This document shows, in pieces, positions 7,924 through 33,351 of a stretch of 64,000 bases of DNA (position 1 is its first letter; every line of letters starts with the position of its first letter). The notes under the pieces were generated by a model. That model was not told the origin of the DNA. It searched no databases and saw only the letters and a list, made by a program, of their open reading frames with translations. The translations under genes and the position numbers were made by a program. The DNA lies in the NCBI GenBank assembly GCA_036867785.1, contig CP145412.1, positions 1 through 64,000 on the forward strand. The letters run 5' to 3'. The DNA comes from Plasmodiophora brassicae (lineage: Eukaryota).

Positions 7924-8120
7924 TGTTCATCCAGAGTACCAGTACTCAGATGATGCTGCTCAGATGCTGCTGCCACCCGGTCACATGATCATGACCGTAC
8001 TCGACCCCGCAGCGGCCCTTGCTGTGACGATCCTGTCCAAATACATCAGTTCGTTATATCACCAGGCGCCGACTCTTGCGACCGACCGCCCCCGTAGTGG
8101 GCAGCGGCGGCGTTAGCACA
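7924..8120 (+). repeat. 3' LTR (197 bp)
   Basis: Identical to 2785-2981. Confidence 0.97.
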
Positions 8121-15241: not shown

Positions 15242-17620
15242 TTACGGCACGGGGGACCCGTCCAGGTGGGACGCCTCGTCGCGCGTCCTGGACGAGACTG
15301 GGACGCTTCCGGGTGGCCGTTCGGTGCCCTCTCCGTTCCGGGGCCATCCGGGCAGGTGCCTCTCGATCTTCCACTCCGTCAGCACCTGCACCTCGTCGTC
15401 GTGCAGGCGACGATCGCCGACTTGCAGATGGTACGCGAACACCAGCAACTGGCCGAGCAGGGCGCCGAACAGGTGTCCAACGTCGCGACGGCGCCCGTAC
15501 TCGTCCTCGGCGGCGTTGATCCAGTACAGAGCGCACGCGCCCAGGCTCCAACGGTCCGACGCGAACGTGTACCGGCGCTCGGGCGCCAGTGCCTCCGGGG
15601 CGATGAACCCGTCGGTGCCATACAGGACGCCGTCGCCGCCGTCCACCAGGTCGGACGCGCGGCAGGCGGCGTCGAAATCGGTGAGGCGCCACCGACGGTC
15701 CTCCATTGAGTACATGAGGTTGTTGACGGAGATGTCCCGGTGCACGATGCCGGCGCGTTCCATCGTCTGCAACGCGTCCAGACCGTCGACGAACAATCGA
15801 ATCAGGACGGCGGCCATGCCCGCCAGCGACAGATCGGCCAGGTTGATACGATCCAGGCGTTGCTCGACGAACACGATGCCGGCGTCGCCCCGGTCCTCGA
15901 CAAGGCGGACGACGCCCGGGCCCTGTGCCGCTCGCAGCAGGTCGATCTCGAGCTGCCTGCTCTTCGGCTTTCTTTTGACGGCGACGCGGGACCCGTCCGG
16001 CCGCCGCAGAAGGCACACCGACACGCCCGACGACGAGTCGAATTCGGCCTCAACGATGTCCCGGGTGCGAGGGCGCTTCGGCGGACTCTGTGACGACGGC
16101 CCCGAGGAACGTTGCGAGGAACGCGCCGATGAGCGCAGCGGGTCTGTGTGCCGGCAGACGCCCGGCGTCGAATGAGCATGACTGGATCTCGAGCGCGGCG
16201 GCGACCTGAACGTCTTCGGATAGGGGAACGGCGGCGACAGGTCGGCCTTGTGGTCGTCGAGCAGGCGGTCGTACTCGGCAGCGTACTGACGGACGGCGTC
16301 GGCAAAAGTGAACAGCGGGCGAAGGTACTCCAGCTTGACGGTGCCGTCTTCGGCAAAGACGCGGGCACTGGGCCCTCGGACCGAACGGCCGTCGTAGCGG
16401 GCGCTGTCGTTCCGGTCGAGCTGGTCGACGTCGATCGGATCACCGGGCGGGACGACCAGCGGAACCGGATCCTGCTCCACGTCGTTGCCGAACAGATCAA
16501 ACGACGGCAACGGGTGCAGGACGAGCGAGGCGCGCACAGTCTCGTCCGACTTGTCACGGTCGTCCTCGTCGGCGAGGTCTGGGACCAGAACATACGGCTG
16601 AGCTTGGCCACCGCCACACAGCAGACCGAAGACGCGTAGCCGGGCGCGATCGTCGCGAGGCGCTTGGCGCAGGACGCCCAGCTGAGCGATGAGGGAGGCG
16701 GCCATGTCGACAGCCATCTTCCGGAAGTCCTTGTGGTCGCAGTCTTCCATCACGTCGTGCGCGCCGATCTCGGCCAGCAATATGGGGAGACGACGGGCGC
16801 GCCGCATCGGATCATCGTTGCCGGTCACCGGCGTCGCCGACAGCGTCACCGCGTAGTCGACGAACTGGTCAGGAAACCCGTCCAGCACCTTGGCAAGCGC
16901 AAACTCGACATGCGAGAAGATGCTGGGCGATTGCGATTCGGGGACGCGCAACGCCGCGTCCAGCACGCGATCCCACACCCGGCCGTGGAATTGGAGCTCG
17001 GGGCGGCAGAGCGGGCTCGGGACGAAAGTCCTGAGCGGCAGCGCGGCCAGCAGGTACGCGATCGTGACGCTCAGGTTGCTGTTGTGGCTCGGGCGCAGGA
17101 TGTGGCTGGCAGAGAATGAGAAATCACGGTCGGGCATGGCGGCCTCGTGCAGGTCGTCGGGCATTGGTAGTTGGAGCGGGGAGAACCGCCTCTGCGAATC
17201 AAACAGGCCGGCGAGAGCAAACGCCGCCATGTGGACGACCCCGTACCCGGCTAAGGAGTGCGCTCTGGCCACCGAAACGATCTTGTAGGGTGCGCCTCGA
17301 CGGCGAGGATTCGCTGCCAGATACGTCGACGCCACATCTGTCGCGACCACGGCAATGCTGCCGCACGTGAACGGGACGGCAGGCAACGGTGCGGGCCGAT
17401 GCAGGCACGAATAGAAGTTGTCGATGAACGCGGTCCGGCCCTCGCTGGGCGCCTCGTCATCCCAGACGAAGCAATCGTGAAGGTTATCTCGTTTCTGGTC
17501 TCGAAGGAAACGGCCGCCAAGGCTGCCAATGAGACGAGCCCGCCCTTGGCTGAGGTCGCGTACGACGACGGCGACCTCCTGGGCTGTCGTCGTGTCGGTG
17601 ATGCGTCTGTTGCAGTCCAT
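15242..17620 (-). CDS. Crinkler/CR-type protein: putative PD-(D/E)xK nuclease-like domain plus protein kinase domain
   Basis: Kinase motifs VAVKRK, IVHRDISVNNLMY, LTDFD, GTDGFIAPE, SDRWSLG. Upstream FVDYAV...PILLAEIG...HKDFRKMAVDM...VFGLLCGG resembles the REase-like domain of CR effectors. Confidence 0.75.
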   Translation of the reverse strand: MDCNRRITDTTTAQEVAVVVRDLSQGRARLIGSLGGRFLRDQKRDNLHDCFVWDDEAPSEGRTAFIDNFYSCLHRPAPLPAVPFTCGSIAVVATDVASTYLAANPRRRGAPYKIVSVARAHSLAGYGVVHMAAFALAGLFDSQRRFSPLQLPMPDDLHEAAMPDRDFSFSASHILRPSHNSNLSVTIAYLLAALPLRTFVPSPLCRPELQFHGRVWDRVLDAALRVPESQSPSIFSHVEFALAKVLDGFPDQFVDYAVTLSATPVTGNDDPMRRARRLPILLAEIGAHDVMEDCDHKDFRKMAVDMAASLIAQLGVLRQAPRDDRARLRVFGLLCGGGQAQPYVLVPDLADEDDRDKSDETVRASLVLHPLPSFDLFGNDVEQDPVPLVVPPGDPIDVDQLDRNDSARYDGRSVRGPSARVFAEDGTVKLEYLRPLFTFADAVRQYAAEYDRLLDDHKADLSPPFPYPKTFRSPPRSRSSHAHSTPGVCRHTDPLRSSARSSQRSSGPSSQSPPKRPRTRDIVEAEFDSSSGVSVCLLRRPDGSRVAVKRKPKSRQLEIDLLRAAQGPGVVRLVEDRGDAGIVFVEQRLDRINLADLSLAGMAAVLIRLFVDGLDALQTMERAGIVHRDISVNNLMYSMEDRRWRLTDFDAACRASDLVDGGDGVLYGTDGFIAPEALAPERRYTFASDRWSLGACALYWINAAEDEYGRRRDVGHLFGALLGQLLVFAYHLQVGDRRLHDDEVQVLTEWKIERHLPGWPRNGEGTERPPGSVPVSSRTRDEASHLDGSPVP

Positions 17621-18309
17621 GTCGGTCGGGGTGCGGGCGGGCGGCGGCGGCGGGCGGCGGCGGGCGGCGGGCGGCGGCGGTATGCGAGTGCGGGCGGCAT
17701 CCCCGAGAGCCCCCTCCCCGAGTCCGCGTCACGCAACATCCCATGCAGCCCTCATCAAGGAACATTCCGGCACGGATCAGTCAGCACGTGCTGTTCAAGA
17801 CCGGTCGACGCACGGGCGGGCCACAGGTTGCGTCTGACCTGCACGCACTGCAGGTGCACCGGGACGGCCCAACCCGGAGGTGGCCCTGCGTGCACCAACG
17901 ATTACCGTCGAGTTGCACGTCGTTGCACCGTGTGGACATCCGGTGCGTGCGCTGACACCCAATCATACTAAATAAAGCAAGAAAAGGGCTGTTCGAGGAT
18001 GTGTTCACTTCAGACATGGCGTTGATTCTGGAGTTTTGCAAACAGGAGGCCAAAATGGGACCACGCGCGTGCTCTCGTCATGATGTTCCCAGCGGCCTAG
18101 CGCCCCCGATTACATATGCCAGAAGTATACTGGACCGAATTCGCTGCATCGTGAATGTATCGGACAGCGTTACTTTGTGGATAATGATTAATGAGTGAAT
18201 AGGCCCTTCTGACAGGTGACAACCCGTGAAGCAAGAAGAAATCGCCAATCGGCAATCGGCATCCAAAAACGCGGGTCAAAGGTCCGTGCTTCTTTTAGGC
18301 GCTGGGCTC

Positions 18310-18538: not shown

Positions 18539-18643
18539 TACCCAAATCCCCGTACCTTGACGTGCCGGGATCACTGAACGAAGTCGCCACACAAATGTAC
18601 TTGCCAATGCCACTCCCAGGCACGGTGATCCTCTGCAGTCGGA

Positions 18644-19480
18644 AGCGCCAGCAGGCGGCCAGCGGTCGCTTCTCCAACGGCGCTGTTGTCGATCGACATG
18701 CTGCGCGCCATCATTGTATGCATTCCGCCATTGATACCGCCGGACGCGATCGTTCCTCTGCAGTCGGACAAATCCCCGCATCTCGACGTGCCTGGATATC
18801 TAAACCAGGTCGCCAGACAAACGTACCTGCCCATGCCGCTCCCAGGCACGGTGACAGGTCGAACGAACATTAACGCCATCTTCAACACGTTGACCGCAAT
18901 CCAAGCGGTCAATCACGCCAAGCACGGGACGCTGGAGGGCAGAAAAGACCGGGTCGTCGACTGGCATTCGATGTACACCGACCCCCGTTGCTCCGTCCTT
19001 TACCAACGACCGGCTCACGACATGCTGCTCGGCCAGCGAAATGGCCGGCCTCTATGCGAACGAAGAGCCTGGCCATTTCGCTGGCCAAGCAGCACCGTGT
19101 CGTGAGTCGGTCGTTGGTACAGGACCGAGCAATGCGGGTCGGTGTACATCGAATGCCAGTCGACGACCTGGTCTTTTCTGCCCTCCAGCGTCCCGTGCTT
19201 GGCGTGATTAACCGCTTGGATTGCGGTCAACGTGTTGAAGATGATGTTGACGTTCTTCCGACCTGTCACCGTGCCGGGGAAAGGCATGGGCAGGTAGGTT
19301 GGTCTGGCGACCTGGTTTAGAGATCCAGGCACGTCGAGATGCGGGATTTCAGGTCCTGAATTGCTTGGAATCTGTCCGACTGCAGAGGAACGATCGCGTC
19401 CAGCGGTATCAATGGCGGAATGCATACAACGATGGCGCGCAGCATGTCGATCAAGCGACCGCTGGCCGCCTGCTGGCGCT
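18644..19480. repeat. ~840-bp imperfect palindrome (arms about 18644-19053 and 19064-19480, ~10-nt loop)
   Basis: Both strands give the same peptide (LDVPG.LNQVAR.TYLPMP.PGTVTGR.N.N.IFNTLTAIQAVNHAKHGTLEGRKD.VVDWHSMYTDP.CSVLYQRP). A partial direct copy lies at about 18540-18630. Confidence 0.93.
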
Positions 19481-19934
19481 CTATATCTGTAATCTGCTCC
19501 GTGCTTGGTCCAACGTTCGTGTTCACGTTTCCCCTGCGCATCGTCGGTGATTCGTATCTGGTCCACCACCAGTTCACCGTGCCACCTGCTCTCATGTTGA
19601 ACATCGTCAATGTCTTCGAAATGAAATATATTTCCGGGTTATGCTTTAGGAGAGGGTCAAGCCCAGGAATTCGATGACTGGCCAGCAATGGAAGGGGCCA
19701 CACTTGGCCGCCATGGTGCCGTGCTCGTCTCAGTCTACTATGCATGCCGTTGATCGTTGACGGAAGTCGCAACAACGGCGCCACATCTCGTGTAAGCCCC
19801 AGGGGGTGAACGCAGCAGACGACCGGATCGGCAGTTCGTCACATAGGAGGGAGCCCGTGTGACGGGCTGCACAGCTGCTTTGACGACGGAGGAACCTCAG
19901 GAACCCTCAGTAGTAGTCCCTAATAAGGGTGACG

Positions 19935-22900
19935 ATGTCGACCATCGCCGTGGACGACCCGCTGCATGCGAACCCGTCGTGCCCATGTTTCAACCAGCAC
20001 GGCATGAAGATTGGCCTGGTCCTCATGGACCCGACCTCGGATGACTTCGTCAAGACGCTGCTAACGGGAGCCCAGCGAGCCGCCGACGACAGGGACCTGG
20101 ACCTGGTGGTCTACTCGGCGGCATCGTTCGATATCGGAGCACAGCAGGCAGCGATCACTTCCATGGTCCAGCGAGGCGTGACGTCGTTGATCGTTCAGAT
20201 CCCCGTCTCGTTGTCTTCCATGGCGCCCGTTCCGATTCTCAAGGGTCTCGCCGGTCAAGGCATCCGTATCGGCAGCATTGTCGCCGGAGAGGCGTTCACG
20301 TCGTCACCCGATTTCCAACCCGCGTTTCATGTCGGAAACGACAACTACCAGGCCGGTGTGCTGGCGGCCACCAAGCTGCTGAACGCCTACCCGGCATTTG
20401 CCGCCAACACGGTCTGCTTCAACCCAATCAGCGGGTTGTCCAATTTCGACCTGCGGTGCTCCGGATGGATCACCACAATGAAGGCGGCCGGGAAGACTGC
20501 ATCCCAGATCGGCGCATATGGCAAGAGCGAGTCGCTGGCCCTGATCCAGCAGGCTGTCGATTCCGGCACGGTATGTCCATATGCGAGTCAACGCGCCGGG
20601 TCGATGTGCGCTCACTGTTGGTGGTATCAGGTGAAAGCCATGTTCATGGCGGGCGCGTTCAAGGGCCCTGCAATCGACGCAGTTAGGGGGACACCAGGGG
20701 CCATCGGTCGCTTCCTCGTCATCGGTCAGTCCTGTTAGTGTTTGTGCTGGCCAATGGATCCCTTGACCAGGTTCCGGCTGCAGCGTTCGAACTGGACTCG
20801 GTTACCGGCGCCGAACTTCAGGTCTCGGATGTCGTTCCGTTCATCGTCGACACGCAGCCGTACTTGCAAGGGTATACGGCCGTGACGCTGAGCGCCGCCT
20901 ACAACCTGACCGAAACGGATGCCATGGCGACGCGCTTCTTCCGGACGGGGCCCGTCATCGTGGACCAGACGACACCCAACTTGGCGAGGCGCGTCCAGTT
21001 GCAGTCTGCTGGGTACCCCGTCTGCCCGTCCGTTGACCACCCGACGATCTGCTTCAATCGGACCGCCGCCGTTGTCAACAACGTCATGAACGCGCAGACG
21101 TACAACGGCTTCTGGTCCATCGTTCGTTCGGGGCTTTACGAGGCGGCGGTCGACACAGGCGTTCAGGTCCATGAATGGCTGGACAACAGCGCCACCGATA
21201 CCAAGATGGCCGCATACCTGTCGACGCTGGCGCAGCAGGAGGTACAACGACGTGACGCTTCTGCGCAGCCGAACGCGACGTCGCCCATGATCGGGGTGGT
21301 CGTTGCCGCTGCTGGATCGTGGACGCATGCGGCAGCAGCAATCGACGCGCTGCATGCCGCCGTTCAGGTGCCGGTCATGGGCATCAACAAGGTCCTTGTC
21401 GGATCGCAGACTCAGCACTCGTACGATTCCTACATGTTGATGTCGAACCAGGAAGCAGGTCGCCAGGCGGCGCAGTTCGCCTGGAAACACGGATACACGA
21501 AGATGACGTCAGAGGCACATGTTCAGCTATTGTCAGGCACGGCTGCTGACAGTGCATTGCCTGACAGGTGCTTTCATGAGACGAGCGTTGTCGACTGGAC
21601 GTCCAGCGACGCCCGATGCTATGTGGCCGAATCGACGTTCAGGGCGCTGGGAGGGCAGGCCAGCTATATCCGCGTCGACCCGCAGAACGCGAATACGATC
21701 GCGCAGGCAGTGGCGCAGGCGATACAGAACGGCACCCAGATCGTGTTCTCCGAGACAAGCGCCGCGTTGAGCCCGACGATCGACGCTCTGAAGGCATCCG
21801 GTGTCTACGGCATTGGAGCGGGCAAGGTCTGGCAGCCGGTCGAAGTATCACGGGTGCTTAGTGCTGACGGCGCGTTCGAACAGGTGACGGCCGCCTCGAT
21901 TGGCGACACCAATGCGTACATGCTAGCCGAGCTGGACGCAGGCCGGTACCTATTCGGGGTTCACCAGAGCGCTTTCCTGCAAGGGTACCCTGGACGTTGC
22001 CATTGAGCTACTCACATGTGCTGATATTAACGCGTGCTTCACGTGCATGTAGGTACCTGCCGACCTGTTTGTTCTTCGCTCGCGCGGTCACTGGGGGATA
22101 CACGGACGGCAATCGCCTGCTGCCCGACCCATCCGCGACGTTCGACGGCACTTCCGTCACCTACCCGATCATCAATGCGGGCCCCGTCATCATTACCTCG
22201 GCCAGCTCGCGCTACGTTAATTGCAGTAGCGCCCTGAATGGACCAAGTACGTAGCGGCGCGGGGGATTCCCAACGCTGATGCTGACGACGATGACGACCT
22301 GTTTCAGCGATGCTGAATCCGGGCCCGAACGACATCAGAGATTTCGGTTTCCAATACGTTGCCTGGCCGCGATGCGACCTGAAACCCGTGCAGAGCGGGC
22401 AGGTGCTGCAAGTCAACACATTTTCGTTCAGCAGCGGGCATGTCGGGTCGTCCATTGCCGTCTCTGCCGTTGGCGGCATTCTGGCCGCTGGCATTCTCGC
22501 TGCAGTTGGGGTGTACCGCAAGCGTGCCGCGATGAAGTCGGGAAGCGTACGGTTCACTGCCGTGTTGGTCGCCTGCACGCTCGCCATCCTGTCCCTGGCC
22601 TTCCTATTCGCCATGCCGGCATCGCGTCAGCTGTGCTCCTGGCGCCTGGCCTTGTTCTCGATCCTGGTCACGGTCGTTCTCAGCGTTTTGTTCGCCAAGA
22701 TGCTACGCGTGTACCGCGTGTTCGCGAATGCCATGGCGAACGGCAAGAAAGCCAGTACATCGGACGTTCGTGTGCTTCGGGACGTCCTGGTCGGCACATC
22801 CATCACGGTCATCATCGTGATTCTGACGCTCGCCATCAACCCGCCGGACGCAGTCAACGTTGAGATTGCTCGCGGCAGCGACAGCGTGACCGTCGCAGCC

Positions 22901-23541
22901 ATGTGCCAGTACAACAGCACGTGGAAATGGATTCTGTACGGGTACCTGGCCCTGGTCGTCCTTCTGGGGTGCTACATCAGCTACAAATCCTGGGACATCC
23001 CTTCCAGCTTTAACGAGGTCAGCGAGTGTCAGTTGCATGCAGCACCCACCCGGAATTTAATATGCCGATGTAGGCCCGCTTCCTGACCGCTGCGTTCTAC
23101 GTCATCTTCTTCACTGGCATCGTCATCATCCCACTGACGGAACTTCTGGCTGAACAACCCCAGGCTCTCCTTCTGGTCAACATTGCCGGAATGTATATCG
23201 GGGCATCGGGGCTAGAAATGCCGCGTTTAATGTCAGATCAGGTTGTAAATCCGTTTGTCCTCAGGTTCATGGCGACAATCGCAGTTCTCCTCTGCAGTAC
23301 AGGACCGAAGCTGATAGCCGCGTATAAGAATCTGGCCGTAACCACGACGCAGATCTCGTCTGGTAGCAGCAAGCCACGCGGCCAAACTTTCCAGACGACA
23401 CTCGACAGTCGGGATCAGATCATCAAGCAGCTACAAGCGCAGATCAATGAACTTCAGCGCGAGAACGCCGCCCTCAGAACGGGCAAGACGCGAGAGACCA
23501 CGCAAGCCACTGCCGGATCCGCTGGAGCAATCGTGCTTTGA
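19935..23541 (+). CDS. Class C (GABA-B-like, 7tm_3) GPCR with tandem periplasmic sugar-binding-like ectodomains, multi-exon
   Basis: RbsB-like PBP motifs (DDFVKTLLTGAQRAADD, HVGNDNYQAGVLAA, VDTQPYLQGY) and a second copy (FWSIVRSGLYEAA, SNQEAGRQAA, VHQSAFLQGY). 7TM motifs LCSWR...LFAKMLRVYRVF, DIPSSFNEARF, GPKL, then a coiled-coil tail. GT-AG introns at about 20571-20630, 20725-20783, 21826-21883, 21985-22052, 22246-22307, 23018-23073, 23193-23265. Start uncertain. Confidence 0.88.
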
Positions 23542-23986
23542 TCTGCCGCTTGCTTTGTACCTGCCTCTTCTCCAATCGTTCATGTTCGACGCTGTCCCGT
23601 CTGCCGATCGTTGCCGCAACCTTTCGTTTCTGCCCACTCTCGCGCAACACTGAGTACTGGCAGTTACCACATGCCCATTTTCGAATAAAGCCTGGAAACC
23701 CTTGGGCAACAGACTGCAGATGGGTGTACACGTCTTACGTACACAAGCGGCCAGGGCGGTGAGGCTTATGCATCGGGCAAAGCCGAACCGCAGGGCGCCC
23801 TGAAAAGAGGGCACACCGCAAGATGACCTCTGTCGCTGCCTGCCCCGGCCTCCTTCGGCTATCTACTCCTACAAGATTTCATCGGTCGCATTCATGCACG
23901 TGGCACCCCGCATATTGTGTATTGAAAAGGAAACTAGGCAAAACCGGTATGGGGCACACGACTGCATCGTGCCGGGCGCGGGTGCC

Positions 23987-25780
23987 TCACAGGCTGCTCT
24001 CCGCCACGCTGTTCTGCAGCTTCAGGAGCATCCAGGGGCCATCGCCGTAATGCCACGTCTCCGTTGCCCAGACCGGGCGGCCGTCGTGCGTGTACATGAC
24101 CAGGTTGCCGTCGCCCTGCATGACCAGGACGGCCGGCAGCTGCGCATTGGCCGGGCCGTTCCAGGACCAGACGGTCTGGCCGGCGCCCGTCACGACAGCC
24201 ATGTTCGAGTTCGTGATCACGAAACGGCAGTCGGTGCCCCGGTTGGCCGTGTTCGTCGACCAGAACGCGTAGTCGCGCCCGCCGAGCTTGCCGAACTCGA
24301 CCAGGTTGCAGTCGGGCTGCATGACCAACCTGTATCGTACGACCAGATCACGTCAGCAACGCCGTTAGACGAACGGGGGCGACCGCGCGGCTCACTTGTA
24401 ATGCTGCGTGCCATGGTTGGGCAGGTTGATGATGTACTGTCCGGGCAGAAGCATCTGGCCCGTCTGGATCCGGTCGATGCCAGGGGCAACGGTCGCGTAC
24501 GCGGGAGCCGGGGCCGCCGTCGGTGCCGCCGTCGCTGCTGGCGCCTTGGTCGACGCGTCGTTGCAGACGCCGACCGCCGCGCACGACTGCCCTTCGTGGC
24601 ACTGCTCGTCGTACAGGCAGCGGTTGCACCCGGTCTTGGTCGGCACGCACGTGTTCGCCGTCGTCGTGCCGGCGAAGTTGGCGATGACGTAGGCGCGGGC
24701 CGCTTCGAGCGCGTCCAGGTTGTTGTGCAGCGCCTCGATCTGGGCGTTGTACGCGTTCTGGCGCGCGTTGATCCCGTCCTTGATCTTGGCGATGTACTGG
24801 TTCTGGTTGGCCAGGTCGGCGTTGGTCGACTCGAGCTTCGCCTGTAGCTGGGCGAGCTGCGCCTGCAGGTTGCGCAGGTCGACGTTGTCCTGGTCCAGCC
24901 TCTTCTGCAGAGCGGCCACGTTCGTCCCGAACTGTGCGAGGACGACACCGATCGCCTGGTCCAGCTCGGCGCAGTGTGCCTTCTCCTGTGCCATCTGCGC
25001 CTGGTGCTGCTGCATGCTGGCGGTCAGGCCATTGATCAGGGCCTGGAGCAGGTTCAGCAACTCAGTCTTGGTGGCGTTCTCCTTCGTCGGGTCCTCCGAG
25101 TCGTCCATTTCGTCGACGGCGTCGAGGATCTCGGCGACCTCGCCCGCCGCGTCCTCGTGCAACATCATGCCGCTCTCCCGGATGGCGATGAGCTCCAGCA
25201 GCGCCTCCTTGAACGTGATCTTGTCGAGCATCGCGATCAACGTCTGGATGGCCTTGATCGACGCCTGGTTGCCGCTGATCGAGTCGGCCAGCTGCTGCAG
25301 GTCGGTGGCGCACCGGGCGTCCGTCTGCTTCCGTTCGTTGTTCTTGGTGTCGATGTCCGCCTGCAGCACCTGGAGCTGGTGCTTGTCGTCGGCAAGCGCC
25401 GTCTGGGTCTTCTGCAGGCCGGCCTTGGCGGTGGCGATGTCGTTCGTCACCGCAACCTGCTGCTTCTGCAGGTCGGCGATGGAAGCCGTCGCCTTCGCGA
25501 TGAGGGCCTGCTGCTGCGCGAGGAAGTCCTTCAGGGCGGCCCTGGCGTCGATCTCATCCTGGCGCAGGTCCGTCTCGAGCTGGTCCAGCTCGGCAATGAT
25601 CTGGTTCTTGTCGCCGTCGGTGCTCGCGAGGTACTCGGCCGCTTCGCTGGACAGGTACGACGACCCGTACGTCTCGTCGAACGCGTCCAGGTCCTCCTCG
25701 TCGAAGCCGGACGCAATGGCAGTGCTAAGAAGCAGCAAGGCCAGGGCTGGCTGCAGCAGGCCGCAAGTCCACCGTCCCAT
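23987..25780 (-). CDS. Secreted coiled-coil protein with a Cys-rich module and a C-terminal bulb-type (B) lectin domain
   Basis: Signal peptide MGRWTCGLLQPALALLLLSTAIASG; long heptad region; CVPTKTGCNRCLYDEQCHEGQSC..VC; intron 24330-24395; LVMQPDCNLV and LVMQGDGNLVMY...VWAT (QxDxNxVxY). Confidence 0.85.
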
Positions 25781-26294
25781 TCTACCTAAGGCGCTCGCTC
25801 TGGACACCTCTGCCGGGCGAAGCGATTTCCGAAATGGCGGTTCGCACGCGAACCCGGGCCATTTGAAGCGGCCGCCTTCCTGTGACCTGTCACTCGCCGT
25901 GTCGTACGGGTCCGCCCGAGGCGTCGCGTCTGCGCTGATGCTCCTGTGGGCAGAAGACGGTCACAGTGCTGCATGAGCCATCACAGTGTAGTAGCTGCAT
26001 TTGGGGCGGCCGCCGGTCACACAGGCAGCAGCATCTCAGCTACTATCCGCCTCGGAGGTGCCGGGCAATCCACGCGCGTAGGGCTGGCGGGCAGTGCCCT
26101 GTTGCTCGTAGGGGTCTCCAACAACGTCTGCGTGATATCTGGACCGGCATCGTCGTCGGTGGCGTACAGACGAGCAGGCGCCGCCCGCCGCCGCACGGAC
26201 CTCGGCTCTGCGGCATTCGACGACGCCACTGCGATTGCGCTCGGCTGCACACGTTCGCGGCGCGTGACCAGCAGCTGCCCCCGTCTCCATCGCC

Positions 26295-28256
26295 ATGCTC
26301 AGCGTCGGTTGCCGGGTACGGCACACGAACGATGCCGATGCCAAGGGCACTGTCCGCTATGTCGGCCATGTTGGTCGTTCCCGGTCGCCGCCGTTCGGGC
26401 AGACGTACTCACCTGGCGTCTTCGTAGGTGGAGGGGCGCCAGGGACAATGGATTGGTGTGGAGTGGGACGATCGCGCTCGAGGGCGCCACGATGGCTGCG
26501 TTGATGGTCGTCGGTATTTCACCTGCGGGCGGTCGGCGGCCACCTTCGTGCGTCCTTCTCGGCTGTCGCCCGGGATAACGTTTGTCGACGCTCTGCGAAG
26601 GAAATATGCGTCCGGTCTGTGCTCAAGAGTCTGCTGTCTGTGTGCCCCCAGCAAGCGTCTGACACCGGGGCACGCGTCTGATCAGGCCCTGCGGCCAAGG
26701 GCGCCCCTGCGCCTGAACCTGGTTCGGGCCTTGAAGTTGAATTCGTCGGTCTGCATCGCATCGTTGCCGTCTGGAGTGTCTCATGGAGGTTCTCACGAGC
26801 TGTACGTCGTGCCAGGGGAGGCAGACGTGCTTGCGAAACAATCGCAGTTGCACCAACTGGCGTGTGTTTCGGTGCGCGCGTCGAACGTCGCCCGCGTTGA
26901 CGATGACATTGGGCAGCAGTGTCCCTGTACGTCGCTGGATTCCCACATATCGTCGTACTCGAATAACGCGCTGGTTTCGTGGTTAAGCACTGATCGAGGT
27001 CGACTTGGAGGATACGCTGCTGGACGACTGGGAGCATATCGCGCGCGTGACTCGTCAAGTGCCCGGCATTCGCGAGCTGCGCCTTAGCAAGAATGCTCTA
27101 CCGTCAACGATACCGCCCATGGGTGATGCATTCGCCCGGCTCGAGGTGCTCATGCTGAACGCCGTCGACAGCGCCTGGACGCTGGTGGGCACCACGCTCC
27201 CGATATGTCGCACACTGGAGCTGACAGAATCTGAAACAGATTCTGTCACTGACGGGAGCGAACTGCTTGCCCAATTTACGAGAGCTGTTCCTCTGCGATA
27301 ACGCCATTGACGACGCCGCGCTTGCCTCTGGCGGGCCGCTCCACCACCTACCTCGTTTGCGCAAACTGGACCTGTCCAGCAACCTCATCTCCGACTGGAA
27401 CCAGTTGCACTGCCTCACCGACCTGCCAAGGTGACCACGCACCTACGTCGTATCTAAGGCCATGCTCCAATTTCATTCCTTGCTTGCTTCTGTGCAGTCT
27501 CACCGATCTCTGTCTGGATCGGAATCGTTTGGCGCAAATACCCGTCGACAGCCGTGTCACGTTCCCGAATTTGGATACCCTGTCCATCTTCCGCAACGGA
27601 TTCGCGTCCATCGAATCGTTCGCCGGCTTGCTGACCGCAACTCCAGCGCTCGTGTCCCTAAGGACGAACGGAAACCCGTTCGAAGACGTCGTTGGTATTC
27701 GGGTGGCCCGCTCTCAGTGTCGGTCTCTGTCTCGGTCCCAAGGAATACCGGCGCTGACCTATGGGCGTGGACAGTTATTGGCCTATTACCGCGGCTGACC
27801 ACACTGAATCGGAGCGAGATCGGGTACCGGGAACGTCAGGACGCGGAGATCGCATTCGTGCAACAGGCTGTCCTTCCCGGCAGTACGCGTCATTCGGCGC
27901 TGTCGGCCAAGTACGATATCGCCCCGAAACCAAAGCCGATGCCAGCTGCCACAAAGACGCTGCAGCTGACGTTCCGATGTGTGCCGCCAACATCAACTAC
28001 GGCAAGCAACGCAGCCACGAAGAACATCCTGCCGAGCATGACCGTCCACCTGATTGCCCAGCTGTGCCGTCGCCTATTCGGTCTGAAACCGTCCGACCCG
28101 ATCGACCTGTATTACCAATCCGCGGCGTCGTCATCGTCATCCTCCGGCCCCGATCGCGTTCTCCTGGACGACCCGCGCCAGGCCATCGCCACGTATGGCA
28201 TCTGTGGACCTGGCGACATCACCGCTCACCTTCACCCTGGCCACTGTCCTAAATAA
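26295..28256 (+). CDS. TBCE: Tubulin-specific chaperone E (CAP-Gly, LRR, ubiquitin-like), multi-exon
   Basis: GTVRYVG / WIGVEWDD.ARGRHDG...YFTC CAP-Gly; several LRRs (LRLSKN, LDLSSN, LCLDRN, LRTNGNP); LTTLNRSEI...ERQDAEI; C-terminal Ubl. Confidence 0.9.
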
Positions 28257-28414: not shown

Positions 28415-31324
28415 TTATCGTGACTTGGACGACCGGGAGCGCTTCGTCGCCACCTTGTTGAGGCAGGACTCCGCATCGACCAGGAGCGGGTACCTGGCCC
28501 TGGTGCCGGACGGCGCTCCGGAACGATCACCCAGCCGCTCCAGAAGTTCAGCGGTGACCAGGACGGGCACGAACGGCGCCGCTTCTGATGCGCCATTGCC
28601 ATTGTCGTCGTCATCACCCGCTCTGCGCCCGCAAGCGGCACCCCGTTCCTCTTCCAGACGCCTGCGCTCCTCCTCGGCGTCCATCTCGGCGACCATCGTG
28701 AACAGCGACGTGCCGACAAAGCCCACCTCGCCGTCCACGTCGTCGTCGTCGTCCCTCGGGCGCGCGCCCAGCAGACTGGCGTGGTCGTCGCGATCGACGA
28801 CGACAACGGTGCAGCCCAGAGTGACGCCCAGCGCGTCCAGCGCCCGCCCGTCGTCGTCAAAGACCGCGCCCGTCGCGCCCGACATGACGACCTGGCGATC
28901 GGCGGGCACGCCGAACTCCTGCTCGACGGCGCGCTTCAGCGAGACCAGCGACCAGGTCGTCGACACGGCCACCCATCGGGACGACTTCCGCCTCGGGCCA
29001 CGCCACTGCACCTGGATCAGCCCTGGTGCACACACACACATTGAGAACCGGGGACTCGCCGTCAACGCGTCAGACGCCAAACCTGTCGTGTCGTGCTGCT
29101 CGTCGTCGACAGCGGTGGACGCCGACAACGGGACGGCATCGTACCGGCACGACGCGTCGTGGCACAGGTCCGGGTCGAACGTGCAGGCCACGGCCGCCCA
29201 CTGCCGGGCGAGCCGCTCGCGCCCTTCCTCCCTGTTCGTCAGCGTCACGAACGCGGGCCGGGCCGAGCACCCGAACTGCTCGACGATGACGCCCCAGTCG
29301 TCGTCCGTCACGCCGACGACGCCGGCGTCCACCGGGTGAACGTCGGCGGCGCCGGGCGTGCGCACCCGGGGGCCCAGCAGGCCGTGCACACAGAACAGGG
29401 ACGCGTCGACAGGGCCCGGGTGCGGGGCGCCCGTCACCGGCGCGTCCCCGCGTATCCAGGCCCGCATCGTCGTCAGCCAGGCGTACGGGACCAGGTACAG
29501 GCGCGCGATCGTCGGCGGCTGCTGCGACGGGAACGCCCGCGATCGCTTGGCGATGCCGCGCAGCCGGGCGACAACGTCGTCGTCCAGCCGGGCCCGCTTC
29601 TTGTTCTGCTTGCCCGGGCCGATCGTCGGCGGGTCGGCCGCCGCCGCCGCCGCCGACACCTCGGCGGCGCACTCCAGGCAGACCTGGGCGACGCCGACGC
29701 CGGCGTCGTGCTCGTACCGTTCGGCCAGGAAGGCCCAGGCGGGCCGGGGCACGCGCAGCATGTCGCGAAGGCGTCGCGGGTCCAGGCGCCCGTGCGCGTC
29801 GCACAGCAACGACGCGTTGCGAATCGGGCGGCCGTCCTCCTGGCCGCGGACCCAGTCGTAGAGCCAGGACGCGTCCACCATCATGTCGTCGTCGCTGCCG
29901 TCGAACGACGCTTCAGGCGTTGTCGTCGTCGTCGCCGCCGCCGCCTTCTTCCCCGACTTCGACTTGGGCTTCGACGCGCGCTTAACGCACCGGCACAGGT
30001 CGAAGAAGGCGGCGATCTGGGCGCGCCGCTCGGTGATGAAGCGGACGCGTTGCGCGCGCCGCTCGGCGTCGACCTGCTTGGCCAGCAGGGCGGCGCGGTC
30101 GCCCTGGACGATCTCGTCGACGAGGCCGGGCGACGGCGTCGGGTGGCGCACGAGCGGGCGCCCCCGGCGGCTGTAGACGAGCATGTAGGCCGTGTCGGAC
30201 GAGATGCGGGTCGTCGCCGCCGACCGCACCAGCTGGCCCGGGCCGATCTCGGCGTCGTTCAGGTTGTACCAGCGGCCCGTGTGCTCGTCCCTGACCTCGG
30301 CGACGTAGTGCCCCGAGTGGGCCGACTCGCCGGCGTGCAGGATGACGGCCGTCAGGTCGTACAGGCGCACGTCGTCGTCGTCGTCGCGTTCGAACGCGAG
30401 TGCCAGGGGGATGTCGACGGCGACGTGCAGCTTGACCTTGGCGTGCGCCTTGCGGTTGTAGACGAAGCGCAGGAGCTGGATGTGGAGGATCGGCGGCAGG
30501 TCGTGCAATTGCAGGCGCCGCTCGGCGTTGCACTTGGCGTTGCAGACGGCGCAGCTGTACCGGTTGCCGCCGGACAGGCGCTCGGTGCCCAGGTACGCCG
30601 CCAGGCACGCGTCGATGGCGAACCGGGTCGGGCTGATCGGCAGGCAGATCTCGGTGAACGTCTCGCGGCGCCCCGTCTGCGTCGTGTGGCAGCGCAGGCA
30701 GCGCGTCGAGTGGGACGCGACGCCCTGGAACTGGGCGCCCACGTCGTTCATCGTCAGGCGCACGAACGTCAGCAGCAGGTGGGTGAACTCCTGCACGTCC
30801 TGTTGCCGGTCGACGCGCAGGCCAAGCGCCACGATCAGCGGGGTCGGGTCGACGCGGCCGCCCGTCGGCGTGCACTGCAGCCGGGCGAACAGGCGCTGCA
30901 TGCCGCAGAGGACGCGGTCGTCGCCCCGATAGTCGTAGAGCGTCTGGCGGAACGTCGTGTTGAAGTACAGGCACTGCATGAAGACGTTGAAGAAGCAGGT
31001 GGCGCCGAGGTTGACCAGGCCGCGCACCGGTCCCGCGAGCTGGTCGGCGGCACCGGCGCTGGTGGTGGTGGTGTCCAGGTCCGGTGCCGGCGCCTGGACG
31101 GCGATGGCGCGCCAGAACGGCGACGATTTCATGCCGTGCTTGACGCGCTCGACGCAGTTCGGGTGGTCGGTGCAGACGCGCCCCTTCCAGTTCGGGTTGC
31201 AGCGCGGCCGGTCCAGGTTGAACACGCGGCGCGCGTCGACGACCGCGAGCGGCGACGGGCGCTTGTCGCCGACGACGCTGCCCGGCGGCGCCGCCGCGTC
31301 ATCGCCGCCGTCGGTGTCGCGCAT
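28415..31324 (-). CDS. Ubiquitin-specific protease, USP48/UBP26-like
   Basis: Cys box GLVNLGATCFFN, QQDVQEF, LHIQLLRF, His box ILHAGESAHSGHYVA, WYNLND, AYMLVY; DUSP-like repeats (LLCDAHG, LFCVHG); C-terminal Ubl. A small intron near 29020-29060 is possible. Confidence 0.9.
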   Translation of the reverse strand: MRDTDGGDDAAAPPGSVVGDKRPSPLAVVDARRVFNLDRPRCNPNWKGRVCTDHPNCVERVKHGMKSSPFWRAIAVQAPAPDLDTTTTSAGAADQLAGPVRGLVNLGATCFFNVFMQCLYFNTTFRQTLYDYRGDDRVLCGMQRLFARLQCTPTGGRVDPTPLIVALGLRVDRQQDVQEFTHLLLTFVRLTMNDVGAQFQGVASHSTRCLRCHTTQTGRRETFTEICLPISPTRFAIDACLAAYLGTERLSGGNRYSCAVCNAKCNAERRLQLHDLPPILHIQLLRFVYNRKAHAKVKLHVAVDIPLALAFERDDDDDVRLYDLTAVILHAGESAHSGHYVAEVRDEHTGRWYNLNDAEIGPGQLVRSAATTRISSDTAYMLVYSRRGRPLVRHPTPSPGLVDEIVQGDRAALLAKQVDAERRAQRVRFITERRAQIAAFFDLCRCVKRASKPKSKSGKKAAAATTTTTPEASFDGSDDDMMVDASWLYDWVRGQEDGRPIRNASLLCDAHGRLDPRRLRDMLRVPRPAWAFLAERYEHDAGVGVAQVCLECAAEVSAAAAAADPPTIGPGKQNKKRARLDDDVVARLRGIAKRSRAFPSQQPPTIARLYLVPYAWLTTMRAWIRGDAPVTGAPHPGPVDASLFCVHGLLGPRVRTPGAADVHPVDAGVVGVTDDDWGVIVEQFGCSARPAFVTLTNREEGRERLARQWAAVACTFDPDLCHDASCRYDAVPLSASTAVDDEQHDTTGLASDALTASPRFSMCVCAPGLIQVQWRGPRRKSSRWVAVSTTWSLVSLKRAVEQEFGVPADRQVVMSGATGAVFDDDGRALDALGVTLGCTVVVVDRDDHASLLGARPRDDDDDVDGEVGFVGTSLFTMVAEMDAEEERRRLEEERGAACGRRAGDDDDNGNGASEAAPFVPVLVTAELLERLGDRSGAPSGTRARYPLLVDAESCLNKVATKRSRSSKSR

Positions 31325-33351
31325 TGGCGGCGGCGGCGGCGGTCGGCGTGGGGCGCACTGACGGACCAGATCGAGCTGCAGACGGAACTGCGCGGCGACG
31401 ACGCCACGACAACGCCAACCCCGCCCAGACCGGCAACACGGCGCGCACGCACTCTCTTCCGATTCGTCACGCGCCGCCGCCGCCCCCGGACGCCCCGGCG
31501 AACGTCTTAATACCACGCGAGCGGCGTGTGGTTCATGCGACGCCTCTGGAGGCGGTCGGGCGGCCCCCCGCCTTCTTGACCTTGGGGCTCCCGAATTCGA
31601 CAGCAACCGAATAAGACGGGTGCGGCGATGGTCGGCGACCTTCGGGTATTGGCGGGCAGCGCTGGGCCAGCGAGCCCTCGTCGCGGCAGCCATTGCGCGG
31701 TCGTTAACGACCAGGGTTTGGATGCAGGACCGGTATTTCGACACGGAACGTTCCTTACTCTGACATGTTCGACACACCATCCTCCCGAATGCGCCGACGA
31801 AGACGGTGGTCGGCGCAGTCGGGCAGATTGTGTGTCGGGCGTCCCAGAGCAAGCAACACGCCCCGTGGACCTGAGAAAAGGCGGCGCGTGACCATCACAG
31901 ACAGTCAATTGTATGTAGTATCGGGTTGAGATCATTTCGGAAGACGGTGCGACGGGTGCGGCGATCGCGCTCAAGGCGGAGGACGTCGGTGTGAGATCGA
32001 TCGTCCCTCACATGAAGGCCTAGAACGAGGAGAGTGTCCAGCGGAGGGAGAAGATCGGGTTCATTCGTGAATCCTTGTACGAGCGTTTGGAGGACGTAGT
32101 GTGGACTGTGGAGTCCACAGTCGGCTACACGTGCTCGAAAGCAATCCCCGCGGCGCGTGACCATCACAGACGCTGCCCGGGGCCCGCGAACGCGACGCGA
32201 CTGGACCACCTATTGCGATCTACCTTGTCAATGCCCACCTGTGCACGAACCTGCGCGCCACGTTTGCGGAGCTCGAGCGTGGTGTTGATGCGCAGGACGC
32301 GTGGAAGGCTCGGTTGCTCGCAGTACCTGTCGTGCACTCCTTCGTATATGGAACGGAGGCTCCTGTACGCGTACAGTGATGCTCGCATGACGCGTCATGT
32401 TGCTACTCTCTGACAGGCGCGGCGGTGGCCAAGCGCACCTGGACGAACCGTCAACCGTTTTGGGCCAACAGCTGAACTTGAACAACTCTGGGAACCAAAA
32501 GTGTGCATTGGCTCAGGTACGGCACACAGACACGGCGCTATCCCGTTGTGCTGGTTCGGTGCCCATGTTACCGCCCATATCTGGGCCACATATCGCCATG
32601 GAACAGCATGGAACACATTGTCCGATAATGTAAACTGTCTGTACCTGTTCAACCCGGGGTACGGGCCGCAGCGTGCACCCAGGTGTGCACCGATACGGTG
32701 GGGTGCGGTGTACGAAATCAAACGGGTAGCGGCGCTGTTCGCGCTCGCGGTCTGTCCACAGGTATCACCCTATCCTGGAGCCGGTAGAGACACGTGGGCT
32801 ATGGGTCGCCCACGCTAGTTAAGTGGCGGATGATATCACCGGGGAGGGAGGGGAGAGGGGCGCCCAAACCCCTGCGATTCCGGTCATAAAGCTGGCACGA
32901 CACTAAGGCCAGTACGGTATTCGTATGCCGGGGCCACGCTCCACTGCAATCTTATTACATGGCGCAACTGCCCCTGAAATGACTCCTGTGATGATGCTGG
33001 CCAACTCGACCGGTTCTTGTTGTCCTTTATGCAAATGATGCCCCTGTACGCGTACAGCGACAATTGTCAGTGGTGGCCTGCACACCGCTGCGTTGATTCC
33101 CAACGTCGTATATAGTACCTCGGTCTTTACTCGCGAACACCGCTACCGGGGAACTGGCGACGAATTCCACGCCGCACGTCGAGGTTGAGCATTTCGACGC
33201 GGAAGAACATCTTGCACCCGAGTTGACCACGATCAAGCATGGTATTCTTGTTTCGTTTCGGGCTACCGTTGGTTTAGCCAACATGGGGTGCGCGCGGTAC
33301 CTACCCCATCTATGGTCGAATCGACTGGTACTGATAGGACTGATAGCAGTC

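Follow-up and report, generated by a model that had tools for sequence, protein, structure and literature searches.

Plasmodiophora brassicae contig CP145412.1 (assembly GCA_036867785.1) begins with a stretch of 64,000 nt, hereafter the window, in which positions 19935-23541 (+) raise a simple question. Do the bacterial-type sugar-binding domains and the seven-helix membrane domain encoded here belong to one protein, and if so, what kind of receptor is it? A preliminary description made from the letters had proposed a class C G-protein-coupled receptor (GPCR) with two tandem sugar-binding modules in place of a Venus flytrap. The region is GC-rich eukaryotic DNA with short introns. The gene within it is real and expressed, and its product combines two sugar-binding domains of bacterial type with a seven-helix receptor.

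Twenty sequencing runs match the stretch, none of which is on record as RNA (the label was guessed). We compared contigs from four of these runs, representing four studies, and relied on the intron-less joints alone, leaving depth and expression aside. Eight GT..AG introns of 60, 59, 60, 57, 68, 61, 56, and 72 nt are skipped in the contigs, and every intron-less joint is present in two to four of the four runs. A single 3325-nt contig in run X1 corresponds to 19884-23701 and carries every one of the eight joints, and its listed pieces contain 0 other letters; the two halves thus lie on one spliced transcript, as had been proposed, and not on separate ones. Contigs of 1767 nt (X6) and 1541 nt (X12) independently connect the last part of the second binding domain with the membrane domain and tail, and the joint between these two domains, 22246/22308, is found in X1, X6, and X12 (three of the four runs, three studies). 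Joined together, the exons give a 3114-nt coding sequence of 1037 codons plus TGA, and the start and end of the gene in the preliminary description (19935 and 23541) prove exact. Introns 21508-21567 and 21827-21883 are in frame and hence hidden within a long open reading frame (ORF). The features of the gene are given below (aa, amino acids; PBP, periplasmic binding protein; TM, transmembrane helix; UTR, untranslated region; AF2, AlphaFold2; pLDDT, predicted local distance difference test).

19884..19934, +, 5' UTR, minimum extent; the X1 contig starts at 19884, and the divergent-strain X12 is colinear from 19778 with no joint
19914-19916, +, in-frame stop codon TAA, 18 nt upstream of the ATG
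19935..20570, +, exon 1, from the ATG; aa 1-212, with 15 N-terminal residues without a hydrophobic core, a CPC motif, and most of PBP domain 1 (Peripla_BP_4 1.7e-14)
20631..20724, +, exon 2; aa 213-244 with a split codon; joints 20569/20630 and 20723/20783
20784..21507, +, exon 3; end of PBP domain 1 (motif QPYLQGY at 20855-20875), inter-domain linker, and N-lobe of PBP domain 2
21568..21826, +, exon 4; C-lobe of PBP domain 2; preceded by the in-frame 60-nt intron 21508-21567; joint 21507/21568 in X1 and X5
21884..21984, +, exon 5; PBP domain 2, with motif QSAFLQGY (21965-22056) spanning intron 5; preceded by the in-frame 57-nt intron 21827-21883; joint in X1 and X6
22053..22246, +, exon 6; end of PBP domain 2 (to ~22233); the public model runs on into intron 6 (AGT ACG TAG)
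22308..23017, +, exon 7; low-complexity stalk (to ~22450), TM1-TM5 of 7tm_3, Cys779 and Cys869; joint 22246/22308
23074..23192, +, exon 8; TM6 and the first half of TM7, from contigs and hydropathy
23265..23541, +, exon 9; end of TM7 (GPK motif, to ~23313) and cytoplasmic tail with a heptad or leucine-zipper-like segment at 23392-23475; stop codon TGA at 23539-23541
23542..23701, +, 3' UTR; contigs end at 23690-23759
19956..21019, +, PBP domain 1; aa 8-322 with introns 1-2 inside; 155.9 bits, AF2 pLDDT mostly >90
21053..22233, +, PBP domain 2; aa 334-665 with introns 3-5 inside; 86.2 bits, also modelled by AF2
22451..23313, +, seven-helix class C domain; aa 718-962 with introns 7-8 inside; identified by 7tm_3, by hydropathy, and by 138 bits to a home-made hidden Markov model (HMM) of eleven family seven-transmembrane (7TM) regions

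The gene is under purifying selection. Contigs from X12, which represents a divergent strain, are 95-99% identical to the window. Among forty listed differences (twenty more lie beyond these), twenty-six are coding, of which twenty are synonymous and six conservative, and both halves of the protein are affected.

How does this model compare with the public annotation? A search with exon 1 found one protein, P0001, which NCBI names 'Periplasmic binding protein domain-containing protein' (P. brassicae, 671 aa). It is identical to our 1037-aa model over 669 residues and then ends in 'ST-stop', read from intron 6. The 7TM exon had no matching predicted protein of 129-2000 aa in a collection of 5.8 billion clusters. 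Since P0001 reads into intron 6 and the 7TM exon has no protein match, the public model is cut short and leaves the signalling half with its seven helices unannotated. An exhaustive HMMER search with P0001 returned 209 cluster representatives at E ≤ 1e-3. The first-ranked of these, P0002 (422 aa, 93% identity), was considered as a second allele and rejected, being the unspliced ORF 20687-22006 of the window locus with introns 3 and 4 read through. The closest true relative is P0003 (SPR01500.1, UniProt A0A3P3YNX4), a P. brassicae paralogue of 1043 aa with 40% identity over aa 3-668, which has two Peripla_BP_4 domains (101.7 bits) and a 7tm_3 domain (124.3 bits).

The identity of the sensor is clear from several directions. 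In a Pfam scan of the spliced ectodomain (P0001), Peripla_BP_4 matches in two stretches (5.6e-29, 101.9 bits), which agrees with the two modules of the preliminary description. No other family appears at E ≤ 10, and neither ANF_receptor nor Bmp nor NCD3G is among the matches, so the sensor is not an ordinary ANF_receptor or BMP domain. The unspliced middle long ORF matches Peripla_BP_4 at 6.5e-9. The domain limits listed above come from an HMM of fifty-nine single-domain relatives. Each module carries the expected 'Q.(Y/F)LQGY' motif, as DTQPYLQGY at aa 266-274 and HQSAFLQGY at aa 598-606. This motif is a hallmark of the whole family including its bacterial relatives, with the Q present in 84%, the G in 94%, and the Y in 89% of single-domain rows; a cysteine pair is likewise common to the family and the bacterial proteins.

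Structure prediction gives the same answer. The AF2 model of the ectodomain (39-row alignment) has a mean pLDDT of 85.9 and a predicted TM-score (pTM) of 0.90. Its top 49 ranks of Foldseek matches in the PDB are all bacterial binding proteins, nearly all of them sugar-binding proteins of ATP-binding cassette (ABC) systems, with TM-scores up to 0.89 (4RU1); the T. maritima glucose-binding protein, GanP, and RbsB are also included. No ANF flytrap is found among these 49 ranks. A sequence search of the ectodomain against the PDB gave six matches, all six to sugar binding proteins. In NCBIfam all matches lie far below threshold and concern ABC binding proteins for sugars or polyols; a rhizopine solute-binding protein (SBP) leads with 35.6 bits, where the cut-off is 420. 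Both domains retain the ligand-site-type columns R151, C138/C152, G121, D/E226, and QGY251-253 (domain alignment numbering). The sensor has the Peripla_BP_4, or CUT2-sugar-type, periplasmic binding fold and not that of ANF_receptor or Bmp.

Is the membrane half a genuine class C domain? The exon 7 ORF (22310-23017) alone matches 7tm_3 at 6.1e-30, with 105.1 bits against a cut-off of 33.5 in Pfam, and with the two Peripla_BP_4 stretches this completes the domain profile first proposed. Hydropathy shows seven hydrophobic segments. The loops contain four K/R residues after TM1, four after TM3, and two after TM5, with none or one in the alternate loops, a distribution that fits a predicted N-terminus-out orientation. 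Class C receptors are marked by a conserved cysteine at the top of TM3, another in extracellular loop 2 (ECL2), and a PK motif ending TM7. Here, Cys779 and Cys869 fall in columns that are at least 90% conserved in a 28-row alignment of the paralogue, and we take them to be the TM3-ECL2 disulfide cysteines. A GPK lies at aa 959-961, and the consensus of that alignment contains FxPK.

The preliminary description had called this domain GABA-B-like. The class C assignment stands; a specific affinity to GABA-B was dropped as not indicated by the sequence matches. The PDB sequence matches of the 7TM domain are mGlu6 (3.4e-5), GABA-B2 (7e-5), GABA-B1, CaSR, and mGlu2, and the paralogue's 7TM domain matches mGlu2 at 1e-10 versus GABA-B2 at 2.5e-9. 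Judging from these matches, the domain is best regarded as class C without a particular likeness to GABA-B.

A flexible stalk of ~50 residues connects the second PBP domain to the 7TM domain, and no cysteine-rich domain (NCD3G, as in receptors of the mGlu/CaSR/T1R type) was found in Pfam scans of the window protein. The coiled-coil tail of the preliminary description corresponds to a 28-residue stretch after TM7 in which six of eight a/d positions are L/I/V/M and which contains neither P nor G; the tail also has weak Pfam matches of leucine-zipper type (TSC22/DivIC-type). A predicted complex of two 72-aa copies of the tail scored 0.19 against a mark of 0.32, a result that is uninformative on dimerisation either way.

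The paralogue was modelled at full length (AF2, 28-row alignment; mean pLDDT 76.9, pTM 0.66). Both binding domains and all seven helices are predicted with confidence, the stalk (662-715) only with low confidence; ECL2 contains a beta-hairpin, and the tail forms a helix at 1010-1035. The best PDB matches of this model are full-length mGlu, GABA-B, and CaSR chains, colinear over 760-865 columns, and 4RU1 aligns with one of its binding domains.

The preliminary description also implied that the architecture was unique and that the sensor might be derived from bacteria. The first of these points does not hold: the gene belongs to a widespread protist family, and similar fusions have been published (see below). 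Peripla_BP_4 and 7tm_3 occur together in thirteen of the top sixty HMMER matches in a Pfam scan, and the architecture recurs in the paralogue and among the best 150 representatives, of which twenty-nine contain a 7TM domain according to a home-made 7TM HMM (twenty-three with two binding domains and six with one). Named sources of fused relatives are MMETSP transcripts of Mayorella (Amoebozoa) and of the diatoms Rhizosolenia setigera and Pseudo-nitzschia heimii; the remaining ones are transcriptome or metagenome records. Among two-domain relatives of 600-700 aa without a 7TM domain are records that carry the JGI name of simple-sugar or ribose binding protein. The binding domain also occurs in other fusions, with a protein kinase in P0038 (824 aa) and, as two Peripla_BP_4 copies, with SBP_bac_3 in P0056 (1693 aa).

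With respect to origin, the closest relatives that are not receptors are CUT2 sugar-binding proteins of bacteria. A search for bacterial relatives of the best single-domain match confirmed 537 of 600 candidate loci, and the best eighty lie in Chloroflexota, Actinomycetota, Gemmatimonadota, and others. The best matches of the window protein after the paralogue, however, are eukaryotic tandem-PBP proteins, several with a 7TM domain (E values of 3e-22 to 1e-14), with bacterial-length proteins following from 9e-14. We also built an exploratory domain tree (FastTree, midpoint rooting) from 152 domains of 108 out of 151 proteins; the remaining forty-three were dropped because their number of near-complete domains was not exactly one or two. 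Eukaryotic first domains form one clade (support 0.965) and second domains another (0.843), whereas the domains of prokaryote-type tandem proteins group with each other. The separate first-domain and second-domain clades imply an old duplication. The P. brassicae domains themselves are weakly placed, with a support of 0.39 for domain 2 within the domain-2 clade and of 0.03-0.88 around domain 1. The tandem sensor thus appears to be old within eukaryotic receptors and bacterial only in its deep origin. The suggested bacterial derivation survives in that deep sense through the CUT2 relatives and fails as a recent or specific event, as eukaryotic tandem receptors match best.

What might such a receptor do? 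We favour, with somewhat more belief than doubt, a putative class C receptor that senses a small carbohydrate or polyol as its ligand. The ligand would close the cleft of one or both binding domains, and the rigidly packed domain pair would then shift its pose relative to the 7TM domain, like the flytrap pair of animal class C receptors. The 7TM domain would in turn signal to a heterotrimeric G protein, and the tail may aid pairing, as in GABA-B. A broader joint reading would make tandem Peripla_BP_4 plus 7tm_3 a widespread protist receptor class, which we found described in none of the papers searched, whose two binding domains act as the intramolecular equivalent of a flytrap dimer. P. brassicae lives naked in the host cytoplasm, and under this broader reading its copies would have dropped the signal peptide and would reach the surface unconventionally to read host cytosolic sugars, or else would read the parasite's own sugar pool. 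Taken as a whole, we consider that combination unlikely.

Several observations weigh against the favoured sugar or polyol receptor. The window protein has no signal peptide (maximum hydropathy of 0.71 in the first sixty aa), and without one, an N-terminal domain of 715 aa would not be expected to pass through a membrane. No leader exon is visible, in line with the preliminary description, because an in-frame TAA lies at 19914-19916 and the contigs are colinear upstream to 19778. A hydrophobic leader stands directly before a conserved CxxC motif in ten of thirteen receptor homologues and is absent from both P. brassicae copies, which begin ~15 residues before the CxxC motif and have no hydrophobic core. 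The start of the paralogue is a predicted model only, and short-read contigs are unreliable at their 5' ends. The first binding loop has lost residues that the family conserves, namely H16/G17 in both P. brassicae domains and W24 in domain 1 (domain alignment numbering), and for this reason one of the two binding domains may not bind a ligand. The domains from P. brassicae form long branches in the domain tree. Finally, the RNA status of the sequencing runs is a guess only, and one contig from X5 (22103-22596) is colinear through intron 6, the retention of which would yield a truncated soluble form of 671 aa. A contig from X12 (20630-20922) is colinear through intron 2; such intron-colinear contigs may be DNA, pre-mRNA, or retained-intron forms.

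The X5 contig leads to the idea that the gene mainly yields this soluble tandem binding protein, with intron 6 retained, and that the fused receptor is a minor product. The public model P0001, which ends in intron 6, agrees with it. Yet intron 6 is removed in contigs of three of the four runs, X1 and X6 connect to all downstream exons, and the unspliced contigs may be DNA or pre-mRNA. Synonymous-biased change extends to the 7TM half, and the fusion has been kept in the paralogue and twenty-eight other relatives, which makes a mainly soluble product quite improbable. The N-terminus suggests a different possibility, namely that the tandem sensor faces the parasite's cytosol or an internal membrane and reports internal sugars, not those of the host or soil. 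Both P. brassicae copies lack the hydrophobic N-terminus found in most homologues and no upstream exon appears in the contigs, but the loop charges favour N-terminus-out, the family cysteines are retained (CxC, C161/C175, and C486/C502), and the same doubts about the paralogue start and the contig 5' ends apply. An inward-facing sensor is, in our view, decidedly unlikely.

Another proposal is that the protein is a nutrient transporter, in which the binding domains capture sugar and the seven-helix part imports it. This is how sister fusions in P. brassicae are interpreted in the available text of Rolfe et al. 2016 (BMC Genomics 17:272, PMC4815078), and the closest non-receptor relatives are indeed binding proteins of ABC transporters. 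Nevertheless, the membrane part matches only 7tm_3 and solved class C GPCRs, with no transporter family at E ≤ 1 in Pfam, and the required ABC permease and ATPase are not part of the protein. We know of no transport activity for the 7tm_3 fold, and a transporter seems very improbable. A Pfam scan of the neighbouring ORFs at 8-36 kb found no ABC components. The same text of Rolfe et al. (PMC4815078) suggests horizontal gene transfer (HGT) for their fusions, and a recent, Plasmodiophora-specific acquisition of the sensor from soil bacteria would fit its bacterial CUT2-type fold and motifs and the many bacterial loci that encode relatives of the best single-domain match. We dropped this scenario: eukaryotic receptors match ahead of bacterial SBPs, first and second domains form separate eukaryotic clades while prokaryote-type tandem domains pair with themselves, and the gene contains eight spliceosomal introns. 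Recent HGT is accordingly highly unlikely.

The window begins at a chromosome end. A telomere-type tandem repeat occupies 1-366 (Tandem Repeats Finder: period 8, forty-five copies of unit AACCCTAA, 92% matches), and the receptor gene lies ~19.5 kb from it. The gene had been described as the first clearly intact one after the subtelomere, which is doubtful; it is probably not the first, because an 828-aa ORF with a kinase domain (15245-17728(-), Pkinase 3.3e-14) lies between it and the telomere. A 14-nt unit, CTCAGATGATGCTG (two copies), lies at both 2806-2834 and 7945-7973, 5.1 kb apart, which hints at a duplicated subtelomeric segment. Nested inverted repeats span 18540-19452, ~600 nt upstream of the ATG. 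Their main arms (18775-19029 and 19091-19345) are 255 nt long, 92% complementary, and 61 nt apart, with two outer pairs; the ORFs of these repeats mirror each other on both strands and have no Pfam match. Downstream, a 522-aa ORF convergent with the receptor gene (24395-25960(-)) has no Pfam match and is Q/A/L/D-rich and coiled-coil-like, with a hydrophobic stretch near its N-terminus. It is followed by two ordinary housekeeping neighbours, a CAP-Gly domain ORF (26428-27084(+)) and a 1159-aa ubiquitin C-terminal hydrolase ORF (28418-31894(-), UCH and weak DUSP). Nothing links these neighbouring ORFs to the receptor functionally.

What the locus offers is an annotation fix rather than a new kind of receptor, and current understanding is not overturned. 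With the model corrected to 1037 aa, the P. brassicae repertoire gains a second class C receptor of the tandem-PBP type. The organism causes clubroot, a major disease of Brassica, and as an obligate biotroph it has to keep track of the carbohydrate of its host; a receptor whose sensor is of sugar type is therefore a reasonable candidate for sensing the host or exudates. More broadly, the family shows that class C receptors recruited CUT2 domains in tandem across Rhizaria, diatoms, and Amoebozoa. Tandem receptors could serve as natural templates for sugar biosensors, and they would allow a test of whether flytraps can pair only between separate molecules.

The most direct precedent comes from P. 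brassicae itself. The available text of Rolfe et al. 2016 reports seven to eight P. brassicae proteins in which 7tm3 is fused to a prokaryotic SBP_bac_1, CHB_HEX, or PBP_like_2 domain; these are described as single transcripts, split or unannotated in the e3 genome and expressed in infection, and were thought to be unique to P. brassicae. The window gene resembles them in that a prokaryote-type binding domain and 7tm3 share one transcript whose public model is truncated. Their SBP domains belong to a different fold class (PBP type II) from Peripla_BP_4. That article text does not name 'Peripla_BP_4', and the eight supplementary files examined contain no 'Peripla_BP_4', 'PF13407', '7tm_3', or 'ribose' string. 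The paralogue P0003 is like the window gene in its order of parts, its short zipper-like tail, and its lack of an N-terminal hydrophobic segment; it is already annotated at full length ('G-protein coupled receptors family 3 profile domain-containing protein'), whereas the window gene is cut to 671 aa.

Outside P. brassicae, the available text of Port et al. 2013 (PMC3727952) reports class C-like receptors of Phaeodactylum with ABC-sugar-binding-like N-termini. Diatom receptors come from stramenopiles and the window gene from Rhizaria; the Rhizosolenia and Pseudo-nitzschia transcripts found here carry the tandem form, which that text does not describe. Class C receptors of fungi, Dictyostelium, and Capsaspora have Bmp, OpuAC, LysR_substrate, SBP_bac_1, or PBP_like_2 sensors in the lists available from Krishnan 2012 (PMC3251606) and de Mendoza 2014 (PMC3971589). 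Peripla_BP_4 and tandem sensors are absent from these lists, and among the papers searched we found none naming both 7tm_3 and Peripla_BP_4; in a broader search, none of the fifteen papers listed showed either name. The common principle is that protist class C receptors swap in varied periplasmic-binding-type sensors.

As in animal GABA-B and mGlu receptors, a bilobed sensor of PBP fold precedes a class C 7TM domain. GABA-B has no cysteine-rich domain and carries a coiled-coil tail after TM7, and the window receptor likewise lacks such a domain and has a coiled-coil-like tail in the same position. Unlike either animal type, its sensor is Peripla_BP_4 instead of ANF_receptor, each chain has two sensors, there is no signal peptide, and its 7TM domain is about equidistant from mGlu and GABA-B. 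Bacterial CUT2 proteins such as 4RU1, T. maritima 2H3H, GanP, and RbsB share its fold, the QxYLQGY hinge motif, and the cysteine pair. These bacterial proteins consist of one domain, are soluble or lipid-anchored, and work for ABC importers, whereas the window gene carries two copies of this domain fused to a GPCR.

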